Assembly: GCA_044225365.1 (NCBI GenBank)
Contig: JBGAIQ010000011.1
Coordinates: 84,782 to 148,781, forward strand
DNA length: 64,000 bases
Source: Planctomycetota bacterium
GTDB taxonomy: Bacteria; Planctomycetota; B15-G4; JADJEK01
Direction of reading: 5' to 3'
The notes under the pieces are model-generated. The model saw only the letters and a list, made by a program, of their open reading frames with translations. It searched no databases and was not told the origin of the DNA. The position numbers and the translations under genes were made by a program. How positions within the stretch are numbered: position 1 is the stretch's first letter; each line of letters starts with the position of its first letter. Below, in pieces: positions 1-38,068 of this stretch.

Positions 1-789
1 GATCGCCTCGAGGTGGTCCGTCGGCGAGTCGAGCAGGAAGCACGAGCTGAGCTGTTCGTGACGCGTGCCGGCGTTGAACAGGGTCGGCGACGAGGGAACG
101 TAGTCGAGTGAGGAGAAGAGGCGATACAGCTCGATCGCCTCGTGGACATTCTCCGACAACGCGCATGCGACGCGCATGAAGAACTGCTGGGGCGACTCGA
201 TCACGAGGCGCGACGAAGGGTTCTTCAGCAAGTAGCGGTCGTAGAGCGTGCGGAGCCCGAAGTACTCGAAGAGGTGATTGCGCTGGGGATCGATCGCGTC
301 GTTCAGCTTGCGGCTGTTCGCCTGCACGAAGTGCAACACGCGATCGTTGATCAATCGGAAGCGATGCCCGGTCGCGATCGACTGGGAGAAGGAGTGGATC
401 TCCTGGTTCTGGACTTCCTTGTCGATGAAGGTCGCGAGCAGCCGCGCCGCGAGCAGTGAATACTCATGCTCCTCGGCGATCAGCGACGCCGCGGTCTGGA
501 TGGAGAGCTGGTCCAGCTCCTTGGTCGTGGCGCCGTCGTAGATGCCGGAGATCGTCTTCGTGGCGACTCGGATCGAGTCGACGTGCGTGAGTCCAACGCA
601 CGAGCGGCTCACGGCCCGAACGATCTTGTTGAGGTCGACCTTCTCGAGCGTGCCGTTGCGCTTGCGCACGCACATCGAGGTCTGCGCGTCGCCCTCTGCG
701 CCGCCCATTCCGTCATTCAGATCCAGCGAACCGGGCTCGATGACGTGCTCGGGCTCGCGAACGCGAACCGCTTCGCTTCCGCTCTCCAT
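1..789 (-). CDS. nrdA: Ribonucleoside-diphosphate reductase alpha subunit with N-terminal ATP-cone (5' part; runs off window start)
   Basis: Manual translation from ATG 789 (GGAG RBS upstream): MCVRKRNG..VDLNKI ATP-cone, YFGLRTLYDRYLL, ESPQQFFMRVA, PSSPTLFNAGT..QLSSCFL. Not in the ORF track because it is open at the edge. Confidence 0.93.
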   Translation of the reverse strand, partial: MESGSEAVRVREPEHVIEPGSLDLNDGMGGAEGDAQTSMCVRKRNGTLEKVDLNKIVRAVSRSCVGLTHVDSIRVATKTISGIYDGATTKELDQLSIQTAASLIAEEHEYSLLAARLLATFIDKEVQNQEIHSFSQSIATGHRFRLINDRVLHFVQANSRKLNDAIDPQRNHLFEYFGLRTLYDRYLLKNPSSRLVIESPQQFFMRVACALSENVHEAIELYRLFSSLDYVPSSPTLFNAGTRHEQLSSCFLLDSPTDHLEAI

Positions 790-26542: not shown

Positions 26543-29500
26543 TCACGGTGTGACCACGACGCGAAATCCGATCGTATCCGGGTATTCGCTGCGCAGAACC
26601 GAAGTGCGAGTCGCGCAGCTCGTCGCGTCCGGATTCGACTTCCAGTGCCCGCCACGGACGACGCGTGATTCGGGATCGACTCCGTCGCCTCCCGTCACGA
26701 GCGGATCGCGGAACGCGTCGGCGCCGGCGAACGGATTCGCCGAATAGGCGTCGGCGCACCACTCGGCGGCGTTGCCCACGGTGTCGAACAGCAGGTTCGC
26801 GTTGAAGCCGTACTTCTTGAAGGTCCCGACCGGTGCGAGGTACGTGATTCCGTCATCGAAGTCGAAGGCGCCATACATGAGCTCGCGACGTACTGCCTTC
26901 GTCGCCGGCCCGAGCACGTTCTCGCGATCCTTCAGATCCGAACGAGCATCGCCCCACCAGTACGGACCCGGCGAGCCCGCGCGCGCGGCGAATTCCCACT
27001 CGGCCTCGGTCGGCAGGCGAATGCCGTCGCCGGCCCACTTGCAGAATCGCTCGGCCTGCTCAGCGCGCACGCGCACGACGGGATACGAATCGCCGTACTC
27101 GATTCCCTTGCCGAACGGACTCGCGAGGGGGAACTCGTCGCCCTCGGCATGGAACGGATCGTCTTTCGCCTCGACGAAGCGACGGAACTGTCCGACGGTC
27201 GTCTCGTAGCGCGCGATGTAGAACGACTTCGAGATCGTGACGCGAGGAGTCGTCGCGTTGGGAGCCGCGAGGCTCGGGACGAACGAGCCGGGCTCGATCA
27301 GTGCGAATTCGATTCCGGACTTCTGGTGCCGCACGACCTTCGCGAGGCCCGAAACACCGCGACGCGGAACGATCACCTCGAAACCCTCGGGGCAACCCGG
27401 CGCGAAGCTCGCTCGGCGTTCGAGCGCGTGCCGGCGCGGATTGTTCGGAGCGATCTCGGCGAGCACGGTGAGCGCGGTCGTCACCACTTTCTGCGAGTAA
27501 CCCGGCGAAGGGCCGTCGATCCGGGCGACGAGTTCGTCCTCGAGACTGCGCTCCGCGGTTTCGATCGCCGCATGCGCCGCTCCGGATGCTCGAATCGCCG
27601 CGCTCGGCCGTCGTGCCGCGAGCGCCGCGTCGGCCATCGAAAGATCCTCGCGTGCCGAGTCGATCCTGCCCTTCACGACGTCGGGCAGCGGGAACGCGGC
27701 GGCAACGAGGCCGATTCGTTGTTCGAGGGCCTTGAACGCGTCGTGGGCTTCGTTCGCCGCGCGAGCTGCGTCGGCCTCGCTCTTGCTCTGGTTGCCACGA
27801 AGGGCGTCGAGCTGCTCCGCTTGGAGACCGAGCGATTCGAGCAGCGCGAATCGCCGATCGGAGAGTTCACCGGCGTGCTCGGCGTCGGATTGCGAGGCGA
27901 GCACGATCGCTTCCCGCAGGTCGTTCGCGAGCGCGACGGCTTCGTTCGCGAGTGAGTCGAAATCGTTGCGTCCGTCGCCCTTCATCGAAGGCAGATCCGA
28001 GTGCAGCTTCTCCAGTCGGCTGCGGTGCGCTTTCATGCGTTGCTCGAGCGCCTGGAACGTTTCGGACTCGACGAGCCCCTTCGCCGCGGTGAGCTTCTGT
28101 TCGCTCGAAGCCAGGGTCCCCTCCGCGCTGCGGCGTGCCGCGAACAACGGCCCGCTCTCGGAGAGCGTCGTTTCGAGCGCCGACAGTTTCGCCTTCACCG
28201 TTTCGATCGAACGATCGACTTCGAGAAGCTCGTCCTTCGTCGTCGTACGATCGATCGTGCGGCGCGTCGTTTCGATCTCCGAATCGACCGCGTCGAGCGC
28301 CGCCTTCACCTGCGCCGTGCGCTCCGCCTCGGCCGAATGCGAGGCTTCCTTGAACGACCCGAGGGCGGTGCGCAGGCTCTCGCTCTGGCGGGCGAGTTCT
28401 TCGATCGGGACCCGTCGCGCGTTCTGCTCGCGATTGAACTCTTCGACGAGTTTGCTGGCGTCGGCGAGATTGATCGTCGGCGCGCTCGTGCCGTCGCTGT
28501 TTCGAACCGGAGCGACCGGGCTCTTCAGTCCGAGCCAGTTCTCCACGCGATCGCGCTGCCACCATGCCGCGCCGCCGGCCGCGAGGACGAGGAAGAGGAT
28601 CGTCGCGAGGACCTTCGCGAGGCCGCTCGAGCCCTGCGCCATCGAGGTCGGCTCGATCTGCGCGAGCATCTCCTCGACGGATTGGTAGCGCTTGCTCGGC
28701 TCTTCCTCGAGACACCGCAGGATGACTGGGCGGATCTCCTGCGGAATCTTCTCGGGATCGATCGCGACGGGTTTCATGCCCGTGAGCAGGTGGTATAGCG
28801 TCTTGCCGAGCGAGAAGATGTCGGAGCGCTGATCCGCAGCATGCGCATCGACCCACTGCTCGGGCGCCATGTAGAGCAGCGTGCCGGCGGCTCCGCGCGT
28901 CGACGAGACCGAATGCTCGTCCGTCGCGCGCACGAGTCCGAAGTCCGCGAGCTTCGGCTCGCCGCCTTCCGTGAGGAGGATGTTGTGCGGCTTGATGTCG
29001 CGATGCACCACACCCTTGCTGTGCGCGTAGCCGAGCGCGGCGCCGATCTTGCGCGCGACGTTCAACGTCTCGTAGACGCTGAGCTTGCCCGTCGCCTTCA
29101 CCTTGTCCATGAGCGAGCCGCCCGCGGCCCACTCGAGCACGAGGTAATCGCCCTCGTCGTCGCGCGCCGGCTGCAAGAGCTGCAGGATGTGCGGGTGCGA
29201 GAGCTTCGCGATCGACATCGCTTCGCGATGGAAGCGAACGATCACGTTGGGATCGAGTTGCTGCTGGGCGTGGATGCGCTTGATCGCGACGTAACGCCCG
29301 GTCGCGCGTTCGACCGCTTTGTGCACGCTGCCCATGCCGCCCATCATCGGATCGCCGACGATCTCGTAGAGTTCGTCCGCGGGGCGGAACGGGAAGCTCG
29401 CGCTGCGCGATTCGCCGAGGCTCCCCGAGCCAGAGCCGGTTCGCCCCGCCTTGCTGCTTCGCCCGGGATCGAGGCCGTCGCCGTTCGATCGCGGAGTCGA

Positions 29501-30505
29501 CGGCGGAAGCGTTCCGGACGCGCTCCCCTCGGGCGTCGAATCGATCGCGCCCGGCGCCGACAGCTCGTTCGAGAGATCGAGTTCGTCGCCGCTTCTCGTG
29601 GACGTGCCGCCCCGGACCACGGGCCTTGGCGGCCGCGACACACCCGGAGAGAGCGTGGGCAGCGTTGCGCTCCTGTCGCGAGACGGATCGCCGAAGACCT
29701 GCGATTCCGAGATCGTGATGTCGCCGCCGGGAACGGCGCGTCGCAGTGCGGCGATCACCTCGTCGAACGACTTCATTCGCTGCGAACGCTTCAACGCGAT
29801 GCAGTCGCGGATCACGTCGCGGAACGACTGCGGCACGAGACCGAGTGCGACCGAGAACGGCGCCTCCCCCGTGACCATGTGATACATCACTCCGCCGAAC
29901 GCGAAGATGTCGGGGCTCGGATCGAACTTGCCCTTCTCGACGAGCTCGCCGCCGAGATCGTAGGGATCGGGACGAATCGACGGACCGGGGAGTGAACCGA
30001 GTTCATCCATTCCGAAACCGGCGAGTCGGGCACTCCCATCCTCGCCAAAGACGATGTTGCTCGGTCGCACGTGACCATGCAGCACGTTCTTGCTATGCGC
30101 GAAGCTGAGCGCCTGCGCGACCGAGAGCGCGACCCGGAACGCATCCCGCTCGCCGAGCGGACCTTGCTCGAGGCGATGCGAGAGCGTGCCGTATTCGGGC
30201 CACTCGATCACGCAGTACGTCGACTGCGCATCGCGGGCGATGTCGAAGACGCGAACGATCGATGGATGAACGAGGGCTCGGGCCCGCGCGGCGTCGTTGC
30301 GAAAGCGCGCGATCGCCGTGGTGTCGTGGCTGACCTCGCCGCGCAATCGCTGGATCGCGACCTTCTTGCCGGAGCGACGATCTCGCGCCGGGAAGATCTC
30401 CGTCTGTTGACTGGCAATCTCCTCCCCGAGGAGTTCGAACGACTCCTCGAGAGGAGCAAACGGCAGATCATCGGCTTGCGGCATCGATCGCTTCTTCTCA
30501 CTCAC
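26543..30505 (-). CDS. Membrane Ser/Thr protein kinase: pseudokinase + kinase + TM + helical region + FGE-sulfatase (SUMF1-like) domain
   Basis: Domain 2 has VAIK, HRDIKPHN, DFG, YMAPE; domain 1 is degenerate; TM ILFLVLAAGGAAWW; RLPTEAEWEFAARAG, GNAAEWC, RGGHW, IGFRVV. Confidence 0.9.
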   Translation of the reverse strand: MSEKKRSMPQADDLPFAPLEESFELLGEEIASQQTEIFPARDRRSGKKVAIQRLRGEVSHDTTAIARFRNDAARARALVHPSIVRVFDIARDAQSTYCVIEWPEYGTLSHRLEQGPLGERDAFRVALSVAQALSFAHSKNVLHGHVRPSNIVFGEDGSARLAGFGMDELGSLPGPSIRPDPYDLGGELVEKGKFDPSPDIFAFGGVMYHMVTGEAPFSVALGLVPQSFRDVIRDCIALKRSQRMKSFDEVIAALRRAVPGGDITISESQVFGDPSRDRSATLPTLSPGVSRPPRPVVRGGTSTRSGDELDLSNELSAPGAIDSTPEGSASGTLPPSTPRSNGDGLDPGRSSKAGRTGSGSGSLGESRSASFPFRPADELYEIVGDPMMGGMGSVHKAVERATGRYVAIKRIHAQQQLDPNVIVRFHREAMSIAKLSHPHILQLLQPARDDEGDYLVLEWAAGGSLMDKVKATGKLSVYETLNVARKIGAALGYAHSKGVVHRDIKPHNILLTEGGEPKLADFGLVRATDEHSVSSTRGAAGTLLYMAPEQWVDAHAADQRSDIFSLGKTLYHLLTGMKPVAIDPEKIPQEIRPVILRCLEEEPSKRYQSVEEMLAQIEPTSMAQGSSGLAKVLATILFLVLAAGGAAWWQRDRVENWLGLKSPVAPVRNSDGTSAPTINLADASKLVEEFNREQNARRVPIEELARQSESLRTALGSFKEASHSAEAERTAQVKAALDAVDSEIETTRRTIDRTTTKDELLEVDRSIETVKAKLSALETTLSESGPLFAARRSAEGTLASSEQKLTAAKGLVESETFQALEQRMKAHRSRLEKLHSDLPSMKGDGRNDFDSLANEAVALANDLREAIVLASQSDAEHAGELSDRRFALLESLGLQAEQLDALRGNQSKSEADAARAANEAHDAFKALEQRIGLVAAAFPLPDVVKGRIDSAREDLSMADAALAARRPSAAIRASGAAHAAIETAERSLEDELVARIDGPSPGYSQKVVTTALTVLAEIAPNNPRRHALERRASFAPGCPEGFEVIVPRRGVSGLAKVVRHQKSGIEFALIEPGSFVPSLAAPNATTPRVTISKSFYIARYETTVGQFRRFVEAKDDPFHAEGDEFPLASPFGKGIEYGDSYPVVRVRAEQAERFCKWAGDGIRLPTEAEWEFAARAGSPGPYWWGDARSDLKDRENVLGPATKAVRRELMYGAFDFDDGITYLAPVGTFKKYGFNANLLFDTVGNAAEWCADAYSANPFAGADAFRDPLVTGGDGVDPESRVVRGGHWKSNPDATSCATRTSVLRSEYPDTIGFRVVVTP

Positions 30506-30697: not shown

Positions 30698-32353
30698 TTG
30701 CGCCGCATCCTCGGAATCGCTCTGGTCCTTGCGATACTGTTCGTGTTGCGCACGCCGCGCATCACGGCAGATGGCCTCCAGTACTGCCTCGACTCGCGCA
30801 GCGGAGCCGATTTCTTCCATCCTCATCACCTGCTCACGACACCCGCCATCCACTTCGTTCACGCGGTCCTGAACGCGGTCGGCATCGCAGCGGACGAGAT
30901 CCTCGCCGGGCGAATCCACAGCCTGTTCTTTACAGCGGTCCTCGGCCTTTCCTTCCTCGCCCTCCTGCGCTCCGTGTTCGGCAAGGACGCCGTATCGCCC
31001 TTCGAGCCCCTGGCCCTCGTTTTCACGTACGGCGTCGCCACGTTCGCATCGCAACCGGAGTCGTACACGGCTTCGCTCGCCTGCCTCGTCCTCGCGTTCT
31101 ACGTCGTGAGCCAAGAAGGTCGCCTGCGCCACGGGCTCGTCGCGGCGCTCCTTCTCGCGCTCGCCGTGCTCTATCACCAACTCGCGGTGCTCTCCGGTTT
31201 GCCGCTCCTCGGCTACGGACTGTTTCGGCGCGAGAGGCGGGGCGTCGTGCTGGTATGCCTCACCGTGTCGGCCTCGCTCGTGCTGCTGGCCTACGTCGCA
31301 GCCCATCGCGCGAGTTCCTCGCCGCAATCGCTCGTCGAGTTCGCATTGCACTACTCCAAGAACGGTCTTCCCGGGTGGGGCGAGGAAGCGAACTTCGGGA
31401 GCCGCGGGATCGCGAGCTTCGGGAACTCGATCCTGCACAGCGTCACGGGAGCGCTCCCCAACGGCGAATCGCGTGGACGGGGCATCGTCGTCGTGCTCGT
31501 GCTCGCTTTGCTGATCGGTGCGAACGCGATCGAGTTCCTGCGGCGCCGCGAGCGCAATGCGGTCGCCGACCCTGCGATGCGCGGCGCGAGCATCGTCGCC
31601 GTGATCGTCTACTCGATCTTCCTCGTGTGGTGGATCCCGGCGCTCAGCAAGTACGAGCTGTATCTCCTGCCGCATCTCTATCTGCTCGCGCGCTTCCTCG
31701 CGATCGACCACGCGTCGCCGGAGCCTTTGCGACGTCGGGTTCCGTTCGCAGTGCTCGCATTCGCGGGAACGATCGTCCTCGCACGACTCCTCCCCGAACA
31801 TCTCGAACCGCATGTTCCGAGGGAGCGCGCCGCACGACTTGCGCGCGTGGGCGGCCCCGGGACGATTCGGATCTGCGATTTCGAGACCGCGAATTTCCTC
31901 CGCTACGACCACGGCGACGCTCTGGTGATGCCCGCGCAGGTCATCCTCTACTGCGCCTACAACGGGACGTTCGAGCGCGTGAAGGGCCGCATCGCCGATC
32001 CGCTCAGTAACGCTTCGACGATCGTGATCCCGCTCTCGGAACTGGCTCCGACCTATGAAGCCTATGGTCGCAACGCCGACTCGAATCCCGCGGCATGGCG
32101 GCAATTCGCGCTCTGGCTCTTCGATCTGCGCGCCGGTGGGTCACCGCAGGGTGCGGGCACCCGGCGGGCGTTCGAGGTCGAATCCCTCGAGGGCGGCGAG
32201 TTCGTCGTCGTGATGAGTCAGGACCGCGTCGCCACGAAAGGGCTCGCGGAAGTCTTCGAGGCGCTCGACGCCAAGATCGCCGCGCGATCGGCCGATCCAT
32301 CGCTCGTGCGCTTTCGGGTGTGGGACGAGCGCGTCCGCATGGCGCGGCACTGA
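30698..32353 (+). CDS. Polytopic membrane protein, possibly GT-C glycosyltransferase-like
   Basis: About 10 hydrophobic segments; DG..Y, HPHHLL, ESY, LAVLYHQ motifs; soluble C-terminal domain. TTG start uncertain. Confidence 0.6.
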   Translation: MRRILGIALVLAILFVLRTPRITADGLQYCLDSRSGADFFHPHHLLTTPAIHFVHAVLNAVGIAADEILAGRIHSLFFTAVLGLSFLALLRSVFGKDAVSPFEPLALVFTYGVATFASQPESYTASLACLVLAFYVVSQEGRLRHGLVAALLLALAVLYHQLAVLSGLPLLGYGLFRRERRGVVLVCLTVSASLVLLAYVAAHRASSSPQSLVEFALHYSKNGLPGWGEEANFGSRGIASFGNSILHSVTGALPNGESRGRGIVVVLVLALLIGANAIEFLRRRERNAVADPAMRGASIVAVIVYSIFLVWWIPALSKYELYLLPHLYLLARFLAIDHASPEPLRRRVPFAVLAFAGTIVLARLLPEHLEPHVPRERAARLARVGGPGTIRICDFETANFLRYDHGDALVMPAQVILYCAYNGTFERVKGRIADPLSNASTIVIPLSELAPTYEAYGRNADSNPAAWRQFALWLFDLRAGGSPQGAGTRRAFEVESLEGGEFVVVMSQDRVATKGLAEVFEALDAKIAARSADPSLVRFRVWDERVRMARH

Positions 32354-32358
32354 GCGCT

Positions 32359-33207
32359 TCAGATGTCGCTCGTCCGTACGAAGTCGAACGTCGAGTCGAG
32401 TTCGCCGAACGTGACGACGCTTGCACTCGCGCTGGGCTCGATTCCTCGCGCTCTCAATTCGAGGGCGAGCGGGCTCCCGCGTGGCACGCAGAACATGTGC
32501 ACCGCATCCGACGAGAACGCCGGGGTCGAGTGCGGTCCGTTCGCGCCATCGCCGTACCGAAGGTGCAGCAGGTGCATGGGCCGACCCGTGCTCCGTAGCA
32601 CGATGTCCTTCTTGCCGCGGAGATCGATGAGCGTGAGCGAGCCGAGATGCGATTCGAGGAGAGATGATTGGGCCTCGATCTGCGGGCCGGATAGCGAGAA
32701 CAGATCGAGGGTCGCTGGGGTCTTGGGCGCAGGTGAGACGAAGCGCGAGAGATACGGGACGAGCCGATTCGCGCCCGTGGCGTCGTTCATCGAGATCGCG
32801 TAAGCCGCGTTCGCCGAAGCAGCGGCATCGCTGCGAAAAGCGTTCACGAGGGGCAATGCGATGCGGTGGCGCAGCGCGTTGCGATTCGCCTTGAGATCGC
32901 ACAGATACCACGCGAGGCGAGTTCCGCCGTCGCGAAGGGGAACGCGCCGCAGCACCGCCGCGAGCACGCCGAGGATCGTGTCGCCGTCGAGCGCGACGTA
33001 GGAACGCAAGGGCTCGAGCGATCCGTGCTCTATCGTCACTGCAAGGCGGCGGAAGAACGCGAAGTAGTCGGCGCCGCCTCGCCCGTGATCGATCTCGAAT
33101 CGATCGTCGCCGAGCGGATACGTGATGCCCCGTTCGAGCGCGGCGATGCGACGGCCGAAACCGTCGAGTTCCGCGGATTCGAGGCGCCGTACGACGAGAC
33201 CCGTCAT
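32359..33207 (-). CDS. GNAT/N-acyltransferase-like protein
   Basis: Start ATG 33207 overlaps the upstream stop (ATGA); YVALDGDTILGVLAAVLR strand pair followed by AWYLCDLK, a GNAT-like arrangement. Confidence 0.65.
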   Translation of the reverse strand: MTGLVVRRLESAELDGFGRRIAALERGITYPLGDDRFEIDHGRGGADYFAFFRRLAVTIEHGSLEPLRSYVALDGDTILGVLAAVLRRVPLRDGGTRLAWYLCDLKANRNALRHRIALPLVNAFRSDAAASANAAYAISMNDATGANRLVPYLSRFVSPAPKTPATLDLFSLSGPQIEAQSSLLESHLGSLTLIDLRGKKDIVLRSTGRPMHLLHLRYGDGANGPHSTPAFSSDAVHMFCVPRGSPLALELRARGIEPSASASVVTFGELDSTFDFVRTSDI

Positions 33208-33950
33208 GTCGCCCTCGTATGGAGCCCCGCTCGACCATGGCCCCGTGACGACGCTCGACGCCCCCGCGACCGATACAAGTCGCGATAGAGACGGTCGAAG
33301 ACGTACGCACCTTGACGCAAGCCCTGTTCGACGTAGTAGCGACCTTCGTCCGACGCTTCGTAGGACGGCCGCAGCACCGCGAAGAAGTCGTCGGAGTGAC
33401 GCCAATCGAGTTTCTCGTGGAGCGAGTAGTGAATCATCTCCTCCTGCTTCAGGAACCCGCGCGCGACGATCGCCTGACCGATCCACGTCGAGATGTCGGC
33501 GAACATCCGCTCGATGATTCCCATCGTGCCCGCGCTCACGGCGAACTCGTCCATCAGCGATGCGCCGACGAGCGTGGTGTTGAACGCGCGGACCTCCGGC
33601 CACAACGCGCGCGCGTCGATATCGATGGGCGAGATCCCCGCCATTCGCCGCAGCAACTCCTGGAACGTCTCGCCGTGCATCAGCGATGCATCGCCCTCGC
33701 CGTGCTCTTCCCACACGTTGCGGAGAACTTCGAGGCGCTGGCGCGGAAAGGGGATCTTGGCCGCGACGGCCGCCATCGGACGACTGAAGAAGATGACGGC
33801 GAAATAGAACTGGATCTGGGTCTCGACGAAATCGTCCTTCGTGAACGAGCCGTCGCGCAGTGCTGCGAAATAGGGATTGTCGCGATAACCCGACTCTTCG
33901 AGGACGCGCGCGACGAGGGCGTCGAACGATAGGGACTCCGTAGTCGTCAT
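33204..33950 (-). CDS. Heme-oxygenase-like diiron oxidase (CADD/PqqC/TenA fold, iron-containing redox enzyme)
   Basis: NVWEEHGEG....HG, IIERMF, HYSLHEKLDWRHS give the E/H/E/H/D/H diiron ligand pattern; ATGA overlaps at both ends. Confidence 0.82.
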   Translation of the reverse strand: MTTTESLSFDALVARVLEESGYRDNPYFAALRDGSFTKDDFVETQIQFYFAVIFFSRPMAAVAAKIPFPRQRLEVLRNVWEEHGEGDASLMHGETFQELLRRMAGISPIDIDARALWPEVRAFNTTLVGASLMDEFAVSAGTMGIIERMFADISTWIGQAIVARGFLKQEEMIHYSLHEKLDWRHSDDFFAVLRPSYEASDEGRYYVEQGLRQGAYVFDRLYRDLYRSRGRRASSRGHGRAGLHTRAT

Positions 33951-34948
33951 GAGCGATCTCCCATTCCGGCGCGGCGGACGCCGACGTGCAGACTCGAGTA
34001 GAACAGGCTGCGATCGGCGGCGAGTAACGGCCGCGTGAAGTCGGCGTCGAACTCGAATGCTGCGCGGAAGCGTGCTTCGTGGTCGGCCATGTTGTTCAAC
34101 TGGCGGTAGACGATCACGGTGCCGGGCCGAGTCGTCGTGACGAGCCTTGTCGCGAGACGATCGATCTCCGCAGGATCCATCCAGTCGAGCACGTTCGACA
34201 AGTCGATGAGGTCGAAGCGGAAGAAGTCCTCGAGGTCCTCCAGTCGCGCATTCGTCGTCTCGATTCCATGCACGGGCGGAAGGACGCGCAGGTAGTCGGG
34301 CCAGCTCGCGGGATCCTCGCGGTAGGCCCCGAGGAAGACGTGGTGGAGGAAGTAGTTCGTGGCGGCGTCGTCGCGCAGCAGGCCGCGTTCGAAGCGCTCG
34401 CGGAAGTACTTCGGATAACTGCCCGGCTCGGCGTATCGCGTCGCGGCCGCCGTGAACATCGTCTCGAGCAGTTCGTTCGAGAAGAACAACTCGAACGCGA
34501 CCTTCCAGTAGGGCGAGGCGAACCAAGTTCGCAGCGATTCGTGATCGCGGGCACCGCCATCGAAGAACGCCCGGAACTCCGCGTCGCTCGCGACGAACTC
34601 GTTCAGGAAGGAGCGCAGTTGCGCGAAGAGGGATTCGAAGTTGCCCCGTTGCGTCAGGCCTTTGGGCATTGGATGACCGATCCCGAACATCTGTTGGAGG
34701 TCCGCGGGGTCGGCATCGTTCGCGGAACGCGCGAGCACCTCGATCTTCCGCCTCACGAGTTCGAGTTGCGCCGGATTGGGGTCGACGAGGACGAGGTCGA
34801 TGCGGGGATGCGTCGCGCGCAGCGAGAACGCCGTGCAGCCGCCCGAGGCCACGAGCAAGACGTGTCTCGCCCCGTACTTAGCGACGATCGCCTGTTCGAT
34901 CCGCGGGTCCTCACGAACGACGGCGAACTGGATCGGCGGGTTCCTCAT
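33947..34948 (-). CDS. DUF3419/BtaA-like SAM-dependent 3-amino-3-carboxypropyl transferase
   Basis: [36 protein letters not shown] match motifs of the BtaA/DUF3419 family. Confidence 0.8.
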
Positions 34949-35126
34949 CGGCGGCCTCTTGGAAGATCGAGCGGGTAGGACGGCGCGGCCGCGCCCATTC
35001 GGTTCGTTCGCTCACGCCTTCTGTAGTTGCAACCCACGGACCGCGCGGCTTCAATCGTCGGTGCGGCGCATTTGGTTGCGGCGCACGAGTCGAACCGTCA
35101 TCCAACCTCACACCCAAAGCCCTCTC

Positions 35127-36110
35127 ATGTCGAAGCCCATCCGTGTCGCGATCACTGGCGCCGCAGGTCAGATCGGTTACTCCCTCCTCTACCCCATCGC
35201 GCAGGGCGCCATGCTCGGCGCGGATCAGCCGGTCATCCTGCAACTCCTCGAATTGCCCGTCGCCGCGAAGGCGCTCGACGGCGTCGCGATGGAGCTCGTC
35301 GACTGCGGATATCCGCTGCTCCACGGGATCGAGACCTCGACCGAGCCGATGAAGGCGTTCAAGGACGCGGACGTAATCATGCTCGTCGGCAGCAAGCCGC
35401 GCGGACCGGGTCAATCGCGCGCCGACCTCATCCGCGACAACGGACCGATCTTCGTCGGCCAAGGCCAGGCGATCGATCAGGTCGCGTCGAAGGACGCGAA
35501 GATCATCGTCGTCGGCAATCCGTGCAATACGAACTGCCTCATCGCCGCGGCGCAGAGCAAGCGCATCCCGCGCCAGAACTTCACCGCGATGACACGCCTC
35601 GACCACAATCGCGCGCTCGGTCAGATCGCGAGCAAGGCCGGCACGACCTCGAACGCGATCAAGAACGTCATCATCTGGGGCAACCACTCCGACACGATGG
35701 TTCCCGACCTCGAGCACGCGACGGTCAGCGGCAAGCCCGCGCTCTCGACGCTCGACGGCGAATGGCTGAAGGGCGCGTTCGACACCACGGTTCGCACGCG
35801 CGGCAAGCAGATCATCGACGCGCGCGGGAAGTCGTCGGCGGCCTCCGCGGCGCAATCGGCGATGGACCACATCCACGATTGGGCAAAGGGCACGGGTCAC
35901 AACGACTACACGTCGATGGCCGTTCCGAGCGACGGCAGCTACGGGGTGCCCGAAGGTCTCATCTTCTCGTTCCCCTGCCGCGTGAAGTCGCCATGGCAGT
36001 ACGAGATCGTGAAGGACCTGAAGGTCAGCGACGACATCAAGTCCCGCATGAAGAAGACGATCGACGAGCTCGTCTCCGAGCGCGAGACGGTGAGGGACCT
36101 GCTCGTCTGA
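35127..36110 (+). CDS. mdh: Malate dehydrogenase
   Basis: [48 protein letters not shown]. Confidence 0.96.
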
Positions 36111-36311
36111 TCTCCGATGTTCGGTCGCCGCTCGTCCCTGACGTGCGGCTAACTGGAAGTTTGCCTCGACCCGCCTCCCGTGTCGTTCGACGCGAGGAGG
36201 CGGCGTCGTTGCATAGGGTGACGAACAACGGAACTCGTCGGGATCGAACGCCGAACCCATCGCAGAAGAGACCACCGCGGCACGGCACCCAGAGAATGAT
36301 CGAGAGATCGC

Positions 36312-36338
36312 TGTCGAAATTCAGCGCGGTCGATCGTC
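36312..36338 (+). promoter_or_regulatory. ECF42-type promoter upstream of the YciI/DGPF gene
   Basis: TGTCGA-N17-CGTC; matches the ECF42 consensus (-35 TGTCGA, -10 CG(A/T)C). Confidence 0.75.
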
Positions 36339-36396
36339 TTTTCCTCCCGACAGGTTCCCGGATCCCTGCGTATTCCCGTTTTCGAAAGGACGCACC

Positions 36397-36762
36397 ATGC
36401 CGAAGTTCATGCTCATCCTGCGCGATGATCCCGCAACGTACTCCGATTACAGTCCGCAGCAGTTCGAGGACTTGCTCGCCAAGTACCAAACGTGGACGGC
36501 TCGCCTCGCTGCCGAGGGTCGTATCGATCTCGGCCGTAAGCTCACGGACGACAGCGGCAAGATCCTGCGCAAGAAGGACGGAAAACTCGTCGTGAAGGAC
36601 GGTCCGTTCAACGAGACGAAGGAAGTCGTCGGGGGCTTCTACATCATCAAGGCAGACGACTACGCCCACGCTGTAGAACTCTGCGCCGAACACCCCGCCT
36701 ATGCGACGGCGGGCAGCGTCGAGATCCGCCAAGTCGATTTCATGGGCGGTCCCGAGGAGTGA
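36397..36762 (+). CDS. YciI-family (DGPF) protein
   Basis: DGPFNETKEVVGGFYII, GSVEIR; AAAGGA RBS. Confidence 0.93.
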   Translation: MPKFMLILRDDPATYSDYSPQQFEDLLAKYQTWTARLAAEGRIDLGRKLTDDSGKILRKKDGKLVVKDGPFNETKEVVGGFYIIKADDYAHAVELCAEHPAYATAGSVEIRQVDFMGGPEE

Positions 36763-36763
36763 G

Positions 36764-38068
36764 GTGACGGAGCCTCGCACGATCTCGTACGATCCATCGC
36801 CGTCGAGGCGGATCGAGCATGTGTTCCGACATCAGTACGGTCAGGTAGTCGCCGCGCTCCTGAGGAGCTTCGGCCCGTCGCGGCTCGCGCTCGTCGAGGA
36901 TGTCGTTCAGGAAGCCCTGGTCCAAGCGCTACGCACTTGGCCGTTCCAGGGCATTCCGAAACACCCGGACTCCTGGCTCATCCAGGTCGCTCGGAATCGC
37001 GCGCTCGATGTCGTTCGCCGCGAACGGCTTGGGGACAGGAAGCTCCTCGAACTCGCCACGTGGGGAGCGGTCAGCCGCGATGAGGACGCCGTCAAGCCTT
37101 CGGAGACGGGCCTCATCGCGGACGACACATTGAGACTCATCTTCATGTCGTGCCATCCGCAGCTCGCTCCGGAAGTCCGAATTGCTCTGACGCTGAAGAT
37201 CGTCTGTGGATTCGGAGTTGCCGAGGTAGCGCGGGCTCTCCTCGCGAAGGAGACCGCAATCTCGCAACGCCTCGTTCGCGCGAAGTCCTGGCTCGCAGAG
37301 CACGACGTCCCTTTCGACGTACCCTCACCGACAGCGTTTCCGGACCGCCTCGATTCGGTGCTCGAGGTCCTCTACCTGATGTTCAATGAGGGCTACTCGA
37401 CTCATCACGGTCAGACTCTCGTTCGAGTCGAGCTCGTCGAAGAGGCGCTGAGACTCGTCGACCTCGCGCTCGAACATCCGGATCTGCAACGCCCGAAAGT
37501 TCACGCGCTGCGCGCGATCTTCCTGCTCCAGGGCTCGCGACTCGCCGCACGGCAAGCCGACGGGGGCGAGTTGCTCACGCTCGCGAATCAAGATCGCTCG
37601 CTCTGGAATCGCAGTTGGATCGCCGCGGGACTCACCGAGTTCGATCGCTCGATCGTCGGTGACGAGTTGTCGCCGTTCCATGTCGAAGCGGCGATTGCGG
37701 CCCTGCATGCCAGCGCCCGTACTTACGCCGATACGGACTGGAGAGCGATCCTCCTCCACTACGACACTCTGCAGCGTCTCGTCGATTCGCCGATCGTGAC
37801 GCTCAACCGCGCGGTGGCAGTAGCGAAAGTCCGTGGATTCGCCGCGGCTCTTCGAGAACTCGACTCGATTTCCAATCGGCCCCAGCTTGCGCGTTATCAC
37901 CTCTTCGCCGCGGTGCGCGGGCTCCTTCTATGGACGATCGGAGATCCCGAGGCGGCGGCCGTGGAGTTCGAGAGAGCCGCGAACGAGGCGGGGGCCGAAC
38001 CGGAACGCACGTTCCTCGAGCGGCGCGCCGAACTCTGCCGGAGCGGAGCGCCGCCCCCGGAATTCTGA
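36764..38068 (+). CDS. ECF42-group sigma factor with C-terminal TPR-like extension
   Basis: EDVVQEA, WL..VARNRALD, DDTLRLIFMSCHP, QRLVRAK, LYLMFNEGY, QDRSLW, IVTLNRAVA; adjacent to a DGPF gene. Confidence 0.92.
   Translation: MTEPRTISYDPSPSRRIEHVFRHQYGQVVAALLRSFGPSRLALVEDVVQEALVQALRTWPFQGIPKHPDSWLIQVARNRALDVVRRERLGDRKLLELATWGAVSRDEDAVKPSETGLIADDTLRLIFMSCHPQLAPEVRIALTLKIVCGFGVAEVARALLAKETAISQRLVRAKSWLAEHDVPFDVPSPTAFPDRLDSVLEVLYLMFNEGYSTHHGQTLVRVELVEEALRLVDLALEHPDLQRPKVHALRAIFLLQGSRLAARQADGGELLTLANQDRSLWNRSWIAAGLTEFDRSIVGDELSPFHVEAAIAALHASARTYADTDWRAILLHYDTLQRLVDSPIVTLNRAVAVAKVRGFAAALRELDSISNRPQLARYHLFAAVRGLLLWTIGDPEAAAVEFERAANEAGAEPERTFLERRAELCRSGAPPPEF

Follow-up and report, generated by a model that had tools for sequence, protein, structure and literature searches.

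A conserved bacterial cassette of a divergent DUF3419 protein, a heme-oxygenase-like diiron oxidase and a putative tandem GNAT: a candidate SAM-derived pathway

Genes and features of the locus

The window, i.e., the whole stretch of 64,000 nucleotides from a Planctomycetota bacterium that we have analysed, contains three adjoining minus-strand genes, designated here A, B and C (Table 1). The initial annotation had described them as an operon joined by two ATGA overlaps and lying between a divergent mdh gene and a convergent membrane gene. All of these elements have been recovered, the three genes and their overlaps from the open reading frames and the sequence itself, mdh from its Pfam domains, and the membrane gene from its hydrophobic segments.

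Table 1. Coordinates of the cassette and of its flanking features in the window
Feature	Position	Strand	Remarks
Gene A	33947-34948	-	333 aa; divergent DUF3419 (BtaA-family) protein, presumably SAM-dependent; first gene of the operon
Gene B	33204-33950	-	248 aa; predicted heme-oxygenase-like diiron oxidase/oxygenase (HDO)
Gene C	32359-33207	-	282 aa; predicted tandem (double) GNAT-fold acyltransferase
ATGA overlap, stop of A and start of B	33947-33950	-	read directly from the sequence
ATGA overlap, stop of B and start of C	33204-33207	-	read directly from the sequence
Intergenic region between A and mdh	34949-35126	.	178 bp, divergent; putative place of the operon promoter, from position alone
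Malate/lactate dehydrogenase gene (mdh)	35127-36107	+	Ldh_1_N and Ldh_1_C; upstream of A, divergent
Downstream membrane ORF	30698-32353	+	convergent; 7 hydrophobic segments, no Pfam match

No hydrophobic segments have been found in the proteins A, B and C. A scan of the region between A and mdh for the sigma-70 consensus has returned no site, and the terminator scan has given one terminator-like site, which does not exceed what shuffled sequences give. We have also considered a riboswitch or another RNA element at the cassette and rejected it, since Rfam gives no match at E ≤ 1 for positions 31500-36500 and only tRNAs at eleven related loci. For a role in anti-phage defence, PADLOC has matched none of the three proteins, and recent horizontal transfer leaves no compositional sign, as the GC content of 0.64-0.66 resembles that of the flanks.

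Conservation of the cassette and its neighbourhood

The initial annotation had named a lack of co-occurrence of the three genes in other genomes as a result that would refute its proposal, and this is clearly not what is seen. With the profile of A, 80 related loci have been found, spread over at least seven phyla that, going by record titles, include Poribacteria, Planctomycetota, Myxococcota, Bdellovibrionota, Acidobacteriota and Pseudomonadota. A, B and C occur together in 75 of them, and in 73 the strand and the order are the same. Four of the five exceptions stop no more than 402 nt past A, where the contigs end, and only one locus (L061) is without C despite having room for it. The partnership also extends to more distant copies: in the same phylum as the window, DUF3419 matches are weaker at 17 further loci, of which 10 have HDO and/or GNAT partners, and here the gene orders A-C-B and B-A-C are seen. 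Moreover, the genes can be fused, A with B (P0126 and P0127) or B with C (P0123, P0124 and P0132), and such fusions predict that the partners touch each other. On a plasmid of Mycobacterium riyadhense, an MmpL transporter gene comes after the trio, whose proteins are 26% identical to A, 38% to B and 31% to the N-terminal part of C.

This arrangement is far beyond chance, and the trio is a real module. Since it has been kept together across many bacterial phyla, it very likely builds one metabolite or lipid. The co-occurrence and the fusions thus support the earlier suggestion that the three genes form one uncharacterised pathway.

Additional conserved genes of such a pathway have been sought as well, and none is common beyond Poribacteria: an all-against-all clustering of the flanking ORFs has yielded no family shared by the loci outside this phylum. 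The neighbours in Poribacteria themselves (Rieske, WD40, HhH, MORN, LamG and DUF5916) are uninformative. Most loci have no adjoining transporter or lipid gene. Membrane-related neighbours are seen in five of the 49 non-poribacterial loci and on one plasmid: a PEMT-family gene follows C at a distance of 6 nt in L060 and precedes A by 20 nt in L083, and in L051, L066 and L069 a membrane protein of 4-5 segments is encoded 10-11 nt ahead of A. Together with the MmpL gene, these are weak hints that favour a lipid or amphiphile over a soluble metabolite.

The initial annotation had further pointed out that no BtaB-like gene is present in the window, and this holds for the whole contig. Actually, the genome has 39 matches to Methyltransf_11 and 46 to Methyltransf_25, and none of them falls on the contig of the window.

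Families and conserved residues of the three proteins

The family assignments of the initial annotation have been retained, with one refinement. DUF3419 for A and HDO for B are both given by Pfam, and the GNAT assignment of C is borne out by profile and fold and has been narrowed to the tandem, NMT/Eis-like type.

BtaA and BtaB form the pathway to the betaine lipid DGTS in Rhodobacter sphaeroides, with BTA1 in algae, and BtaA and BTA1, the characterised DUF3419 members, are aminocarboxypropyl transferases. A belongs to the same family, PF11899, which it matches with 70.6 bits (E 1.8e-19; cut-off 28.2). The alignment covers positions 12-91 and 128-382 of 385, with ~36 positions absent, and residues 35-74 of A also give sub-threshold Pfam matches to class I methyltransferases. 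The homologues of A (at least 120, among the matches listed) share 44-61% identity with it, and nearly all are of similar length. NxxQ, LSNxxDW and RQLN are among the motifs invariant in the A family, and wherever 18 homologues agree without exception, the window's A has the same residue. It also retains residues common to canonical DUF3419 proteins, such as E13, D14, G37, Q61, K68, S251 and Y317.

On the other hand, A is shorter than the canonical proteins and has diverged from them, as PF11899 gives 262 bits to a canonical member from the same phylum. We have built a DUF3419 tree from 41 selected rows, namely 24 of the 81 A-B-C-type copies (the window and 23 of the 80 loci), 10 variants and 7 proteins without partners, none of the rows being an experimentally proven BtaA. 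In this tree, the 34 proteins with HDO/GNAT partners are split from six partner-less planctomycete proteins by a branch with an SH-aLRT support of 87. That is, by tree and bit score, A falls outside the canonical, high-scoring DUF3419 group despite its membership in PF11899. Because of this low score and separate branch, the chemistry of A may differ from that of BtaA and could be methyl transfer. A search of the PDB with the profile of A has found no DUF3419 structure (best E 0.13).

B matches PF14518, Haem_oxygenas_2, with 61.6 bits (E 1.1e-16; cut-off 28.9). Among solved structures, its profile finds the pABA synthase/CADD entries 9pj4 (E 1.4e-7) and 1rcw (E 3.2e-6), HrmI 9n1a (E 3.4e-7) and BesC 7twa (E 1.1e-4). 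B shares the Pfam family and the six conserved metal-ligand positions with these enzymes, but it is remote from them, with E values of 1e-7 to 1e-4; its score on the CADD family TIGR04305 is 25.7 bits, below the cut-off of 200. All of 25 sequences compared have E81/E82, H92, E147, H178, D182 and H185, and in the alignment with CADD 1rcw these fall on stretches with E, H, E, H, D and H, which we take to be its metal ligands. The window's B, moreover, has every residue invariant across 25 homologues. Judged from its family match and these residues, B is an HDO with a complete ligand set of three histidines and three carboxylates. Opposite Y27 of CADD, presumably the sacrificial tyrosine of the Chlamydia enzyme, HMMER places F28 of B; this residue is nearly invariant, as is the adjoining Y27 of B, and a shift of one residue is possible.

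For the window's C, Pfam and NCBIfam give no family match, and none to a GNAT family even at E ≤ 1, while its relatives P0124, L085 and L096 match Acetyltransf_1. The profile of C finds the AAC(2') GNATs weakly, in the N-terminal half (E 7e-4). The AF2 model (pLDDT 90.4) has been compared with known structures by VIA-align, which gives 4zm6 (Z 13.7), 2wpw (Z 12.4), the NMT 8fbt (Z 12.3) and 2p6e (Z 11.9), and the alignments with tandem GNATs cover 210-222 residues. Foldseek returns 182 matches at E ≤ 0.001 with tandem GNATs on top, and all of the best Foldseek matches and the 50 VIA-align matches listed are GNAT-fold or acyltransferase entries. According to this model, C is predicted to have a GNAT fold made of two GNAT-like halves, as in NMT, Eis-like enzymes, the clavulanate protein 2wpw and the GlcN N-acetyltransferases 4zm6 and 5kf1. 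It differs from these tandem GNATs in showing no sequence similarity beyond the weak AAC(2') match and in its atypical CoA-binding motif, and it is much smaller than NMT.

A further possible likeness to NMT and Eis, which use the C-terminal carboxylate in catalysis, lies in the strongly conserved C-terminal end. The pattern [ST][SGA][DES][IVL] closes 129 of 150 representatives of the C family, the window's C ending in ...TSDI, and the alignments with NMT reach the last residues (1..280 of the model with 2p6e 76..455, and 1..282 with 8fbt 80..466). Every residue invariant across 25 homologues is present in the window's C. The usual GNAT motif for binding the CoA pyrophosphate is R/Q-x-x-G-x-G/A; the C family has the consensus RGxxIP in this place, and the window's copy, NRNALRHRIALP, is more degenerate, as read by eye. 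Since this departs from the usual motif, the acyl donor of C could be other than acyl-CoA. The C family specific to the trio comprises 286 representatives at E ≤ 1e-30. With C (P0003) as the query, no longer proteins have been found at E ≤ 1e-8, a weak negative because B-C fusions came up from the B side and in the search that gave the 286 representatives.

A proposed pathway and its alternatives

Taking these results together, we lean towards the reading that A, B and C make up a self-contained three-enzyme pathway, probably physically associated, which leads to one SAM-derived product. By homology with BtaA, A would bind SAM and release methylthioadenosine, the 3-amino-3-carboxypropyl (homoserine-like) group of SAM being passed on to an acceptor. 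C, as its fold and conservation suggest, may then N-acylate an amino group of the intermediate, possibly with the conserved C-terminal carboxylate as the base. B, with its intact ligands and family membership, would use O2 for hydroxylation, N-oxygenation, desaturation or oxidative decarboxylation. The last two steps could take place in either order, and the product may be carried on a lipid. Points that count against this reading are the low score and separate branch of A, the departure of C from the usual CoA motif, the small number of loci with membrane-related neighbours, and the lack of hydrophobic segments in the three proteins. As a candidate product, the aminocarboxypropylated, oxidised and acylated compound of the initial annotation is reasonable. 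More tentatively, and with distinctly lower confidence than for the pathway itself, the product may represent an undescribed class of SAM-derived compounds with an N-acylated, oxidised aminocarboxypropyl unit. Such a product would most likely be a lipid or amphiphile that contains no phosphorus, and a complex of the three enzymes would make it, with B performing chemistry new to its family on the transferred unit.

The bursatellin pathway of molluscs, described in PMC11869996, offers a chemical precedent: an aminocarboxypropyl transferase acts with SAM, and the amino-acid unit that it has transferred is then tailored by oxidation to a nitrile. Its transferase differs from A in being an isonocardicin-synthase homologue and not a DUF3419 protein, and the proposed oxidases are flavin monooxygenases and a P450, with neither an HDO nor a GNAT.

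Several other explanations have to be weighed against this pathway. A could be a plain methyltransferase releasing S-adenosylhomocysteine, so that the cassette would methylate, oxidise and acylate a small molecule with no aminocarboxypropyl transfer. DUF3419 has a class I methyltransferase-like fold, weak to moderate matches to Methyltransf_11/12/23/25 occur in A and its relatives, A stands on a branch apart from the canonical proteins, and aminocarboxypropyl transfer, according to PMC11869996, is not predictable from sequence. We nevertheless consider this explanation rather unlikely, for the family-wide conserved residues are kept in A and the characterised members of the family transfer the aminocarboxypropyl group; in three of 49 loci, moreover, an ordinary class I methyltransferase lies beside the trio, which would be redundant if A itself methylated. 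Less probable still is a metallophore, in which an aminocarboxypropyl amine resembling opines or nicotianamine would come from A, an amine would be N-hydroxylated by B, and C would acylate the N-hydroxy group to a hydroxamate. Such a scheme mirrors the hydroxylase and acyltransferase pairs of hydroxamate siderophores. Nicotianamine and staphylopine are indeed built by aminocarboxypropyl transfer from SAM, the lysine N-oxygenase HrmI is among the closest solved relatives of B, and behind the mycobacterial copy lies the gene of an exporter of the MmpL family, which also exports mycobactins. However, B is about equally close to pABA synthase/CADD, the cassette is alone in most genomes, and the 25 commonest of the 78 Pfam families among the 88 nearest-neighbour ORFs (49 loci) include no receptor, uptake or exporter family.

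That the trio modifies a macromolecule, such as a protein N-terminus or lysine, a tRNA or an rRNA, with no free metabolite, seems quite improbable to us. Aminocarboxypropyl transfer does occur on tRNA and rRNA, protein N-myristoyltransferases and N-terminal acetyltransferases are among the best full-length structural matches of C, and the cassette has no conserved transporter. But neither a target gene nor a tRNA or other RNA element has been kept beside it, and the MmpL gene and the membrane proteins encoded next to some copies suggest a product that is small and hydrophobic. The known RNA aminocarboxypropyl transferases, listed also in PMC11869996, belong to other folds. The least probable explanation, to which we give hardly any weight, is ordinary DGTS synthesis with A as BtaA, a BtaB encoded at another place in the genome, and B and C as unrelated neighbours. 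The linkage of A to B and C in 75 of 80 loci and the fusions speak against it. The 39-46 generic methyltransferase-domain matches elsewhere in the genome leave room for a BtaB. As A stands apart from the canonical DUF3419 proteins and the contig, like the operon, has no matching methyltransferase domain, we do not take the locus for one of ordinary DGTS synthesis. The obligate partners of A are instead an HDO and a tandem GNAT, neither of which is known to be used in making DGTS; A is the sole DUF3419 gene of its genome, and class I methyltransferases account for only four of the 88 nearest neighbours.

In the published literature on DUF3419, BtaA relatives, HDOs and aminocarboxypropyl transferases, we have found no description of the trio among the matches listed, the search covering the articles themselves, and no publication that combines heme oxygenase-like enzymes with BtaA or 3-amino-3-carboxypropyl. 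One HDO paper, PMC13185094, does not concern the trio in its main part, though the HDO censuses in its supplementary tables may include the cluster.

HDOs and SAM aminocarboxypropyl transferases are small, actively mined classes and a steady source of new chemistry. The cassette consists of three soluble proteins and apparently needs no further dedicated gene, so it is small enough for direct expression tests. Its carriers include the Poribacteria, which are sponge symbionts, and environmentally important bacteria may owe to it a lipid head group, a signal or a metal binder that is new. Solving the cassette would also reveal what a large branch of DUF3419 and a so far unnamed family of tandem GNATs do.

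Operon structure and protein families

We have examined three minus-strand genes, termed A (a DUF3419 SAM enzyme), B (a heme-oxygenase-like diiron oxidase, HDO) and C (a tandem GNAT). ORF and sequence readings agree with the initial annotation in every element of the locus, i.e., an operon with two ATGA overlaps, a divergent mdh and a convergent membrane gene. The latter encodes 551 aa with 7 hydrophobic segments and has no Pfam match. The GC content of the trio (0.64–0.66) is the same as that of the flanks. Farther out, a 1320-aa protein (26543–30505, minus strand) has a C-terminal FGE-sulfatase (formylglycine-generating enzyme-like) domain in addition to two stretches of Ser/Thr kinase domain, and at 36397–38068 (plus strand) a YCII-domain gene is overlapped by the gene that follows it, encoding an ECF-type sigma factor whose C-terminal domain is DUF6596. 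In other trio loci, ECF sigma factors also rank with the commonest neighbours (4/88 nearest-neighbour ORFs).

Features of the trio locus in the window
Feature	Position	Strand	Basis
Gene A	33947–34948	-	ORF, 333 aa
Gene B	33204–33950	-	ORF, 248 aa
Gene C	32359–33207	-	ORF, 282 aa
ATGA overlap, A stop / B start	33947–33950	-	sequence reading
ATGA overlap, B stop / C start	33204–33207	-	sequence reading
Malate/lactate dehydrogenase, upstream, divergent from trio	35127–36107	+	

The three family assignments proposed initially have all been upheld. For A, the BtaA-like assignment rests on a PF11899 match (DUF3419, the BtaA family) of 70.6 bits, covering model positions 12–91 and 128–382 of 385; BtaA is the characterised DUF3419 member. 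The N-terminal nucleotide-binding motif gives sub-threshold class I methyltransferase matches. Residues E13, D14, G37, Q61, K68, G102, N198, G207, L220, S251 and Y317 are common to A and the canonical DUF3419 proteins, i.e., the partner-less group scoring high on the Pfam model (e.g., 378 aa, 262 bits). A search with A returned 1407 relatives, the best 120 being 44–61% identical and, with few exceptions, of much the same length. In the 6.5-Mb genome, A is the only DUF3419 gene and B the only PF14518 gene.

B matches PF14518 (Haem_oxygenas_2), and its profile of 25 homologues finds the solved pABA synthases/CADD (9pj4, E 1.4e-7; 1rcw, E 3.2e-6), the lysine N-oxygenase HrmI (E 3.4e-7) and BesC (E 1.1e-4). 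E81/E82, H92, E147, H178, D182 and H185 are invariant in 25/25 sequences and align with CADD stretches holding E, H, E, H, D and H, which we take to be the CADD metal ligands; the ligand positions are thus intact. B was rejected as a CADD-family member, scoring 25.7 bits where the cut-off is 200.

No Pfam or NCBIfam match was obtained for C, and its GNAT assignment comes from profile and fold. The profile (25 homologues) weakly matches aminoglycoside 2'-N-acetyltransferases via the N-terminal half (E 7e-4), and the AlphaFold2 model (pLDDT 90.4) matches GNAT structures, the best full-length ones being tandem GNATs (4zm6, Z 13.7; 2wpw, Z 12.4; 5kf1, Z 12.0). These best matches include N-myristoyltransferases (NMT; 8fbt, Z 12.3; 2p6e, Z 11.9), with alignments reaching the final residues of both proteins. 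The C-terminus reads [ST][SGA][DES][IVL] in 129 of 150 C-family representatives (SDI 74, SEI 34). In NMT and Eis the C-terminal carboxylate takes part in catalysis, and that of C may by analogy play such a role. The GNAT CoA-binding motif appears atypical, the family consensus at the loop being DLKVHPDYRGxxIP. In the window (32860–32910, residues ~104–120) and in the closest planctomycete relatives (L004, L011) this loop is far from the consensus, with D104, L105 and K106 kept. Among 1.84 billion, the C profile finds 989 representatives at E ≤ 1e-3, 778 at E ≤ 1e-10 and 286 at E ≤ 1e-30. None of A, B and C has a hydrophobic segment.

Co-occurrence, variants and fusions

One genome per species was scanned with the A profile, and in the best 80 of 125 confirmed relatives the three genes were called with HMMs of each. 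The trio proposed as a unit is conserved: A, B and C are all present in 75 of the 80 loci, on the same strand and in the order A-B-C in 73. The order is A-C-B in L070, and C lies divergent upstream in L012. In L050, L054, L059 and L077 the sequence ends ≤402 nt past A, leaving L061 as the sole locus without C despite 6 kb following. The loci are labelled Poribacteria, Planctomycetota, Myxococcota, Bdellovibrionota, Acidobacteriota and Pseudomonadota, with a small number of MAGs of odd binning. When all flank ORFs were clustered, no further gene family was common to the trio loci outside Poribacteria, and the genes next to the poribacterial copies are unrelated in function.

Two contigs that carry the trio have an unexpected taxonomic binning (L012, Candidatus Vogelbacteria; L024, uncultured Enterobacteriaceae), for which mis-binning or transfer may be the cause; L012 forms a pair with the planctomycete L070 in the A tree (SH-aLRT 97). 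In addition, the A proteins of L008 (a betaproteobacterium, complete genome) and L021 (a Lysobacterales MAG) are near-identical tree neighbours nested beside a planctomycete copy (SH-aLRT 96–100), which suggests horizontal transfer of the cassette. A plasmid search found a distant trio copy on Mycobacterium riyadhense plasmid NZ_OY970457 (L085, 6019–11680), annotated as a DUF3419 protein, an iron-containing redox enzyme and a GNAT (325 aa), whose products are 26% (A), 38% (B) and 31% (C, N-terminal part) identical to those of the window. An MmpL transporter comes next on that strand, and the flanks hold PE/PPE genes and an integrase.

Fusion proteins join A to B (P0126, 609 aa; P0127, 611 aa) and B to C (P0123, P0124, P0132), and in P0125 the GNAT stands ahead of the HDO. 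Most are single metagenomic sequences in which gene-calling errors are possible; the two independent A-B clusters agree.

Within the window's phylum, a DUF3419 match at E ≤ 1e-10 was obtained in 23 of 201 genomes and is strong in nine, the window's genome included. The distribution is patchy, as only one of the four other genomes in the family of the window's genome has a match. Among 17 weaker-match loci, 10 have HDO and/or GNAT partners, arranged as A-C-B (L100, L106, L107, L109), B-A-C (L113, L114), on mixed strands (L102) or partially (L098, L099, L105), and DUF3419 is alone in seven.

Ordinary betaine-lipid synthesis as an alternative

The trio might simply perform ordinary synthesis of the betaine lipid DGTS, for which BtaA works with the methyltransferase BtaB. 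The genome holds 39–46 generic methyltransferase-domain matches elsewhere, and a BtaB may be among them. However, Methyltransf_11 and Methyltransf_25 have no match on the whole contig, which bears out the initial observation that the window has no BtaB-like gene, and class I methyltransferases make up only 4 of the 88 nearest-neighbour ORFs in 49 non-poribacterial loci. The partners of A are instead obligate, an oxidase and an acyltransferase.

The tree also argues against DGTS synthesis, as A lies on a branch separate from the canonical proteins. In this tree of 41 hand-chosen DUF3419 proteins (24 of 81 A-B-C-type copies, i.e., the window and 23 of the 80 loci, with 10 variants and seven partner-less), the 34 with HDO/GNAT partners split from six partner-less ones (SH-aLRT 87), and the A-B-C-type proteins form one group (SH-aLRT 99), with L084 on a very long branch. 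The variants are all those with an A match over its length; L099 and L112 were omitted. The context of canonical DUF3419 is lipid-flavoured and different from that of the trio: among four of the seven partner-less loci viewed (L101, L104, L108, L111; genomes G198, G104, G116), three adjoin MMPL/RND-type transporters and one a fatty acyl reductase-type gene (NAD_binding_4). Overall, we consider ordinary DGTS synthesis unlikely.

A putative three-enzyme pathway

We propose that the trio would instead build a tailored aminocarboxypropyl compound. Judging from BtaA homology and the residues common with canonical DUF3419, A would use SAM as donor of the 3-amino-3-carboxypropyl group; C would N-acylate an amine on the intermediate, and B would oxidise it with O2, the last two steps in either order. 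Given the atypical CoA-binding motif of C, acyl-ACP or aminoacyl-tRNA donors are possible. The bursatellin pathway provides a published precedent, in which an aminocarboxypropyl unit is tailored oxidatively after its transfer; the same paper states that aminocarboxypropyl transferase activity is not predictable from sequence (PMC11869996).

Weak but recurrent hints from neighbour genes, including the mycobacterial MmpL, point to a hydrophobic product. A membrane methyltransferase of the PEMT family is encoded 6 nt past C in L060 (8480–9046) and, in L083 (5433–5981), 20 nt ahead of A, i.e., downstream versus upstream of the trio in related genomes; the assignment is from Pfam for L083, and from BLAST pairing with L083 and the total of two PEMT matches for L060. 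In three Oligoflexia-like MAGs, a 248–266-aa protein with 4–5 hydrophobic segments and no Pfam match is encoded 10–11 nt upstream of A on the same strand (L051, 1413–2210; L066, 659–1402; L069, 1262–2023), and may be a lineage-specific fourth component.

The enzymes are members of known superfamilies. In agreement with the initial reading, which knew of no characterised pathway with this combination, we have found no description of it in the full text of literature drawn largely from outside subscription journals, and an earlier mention elsewhere is possible. We therefore rate the trio as a widely distributed, putative three-enzyme biosynthetic cassette for which no characterised counterpart was found, and as a good, directly testable target.
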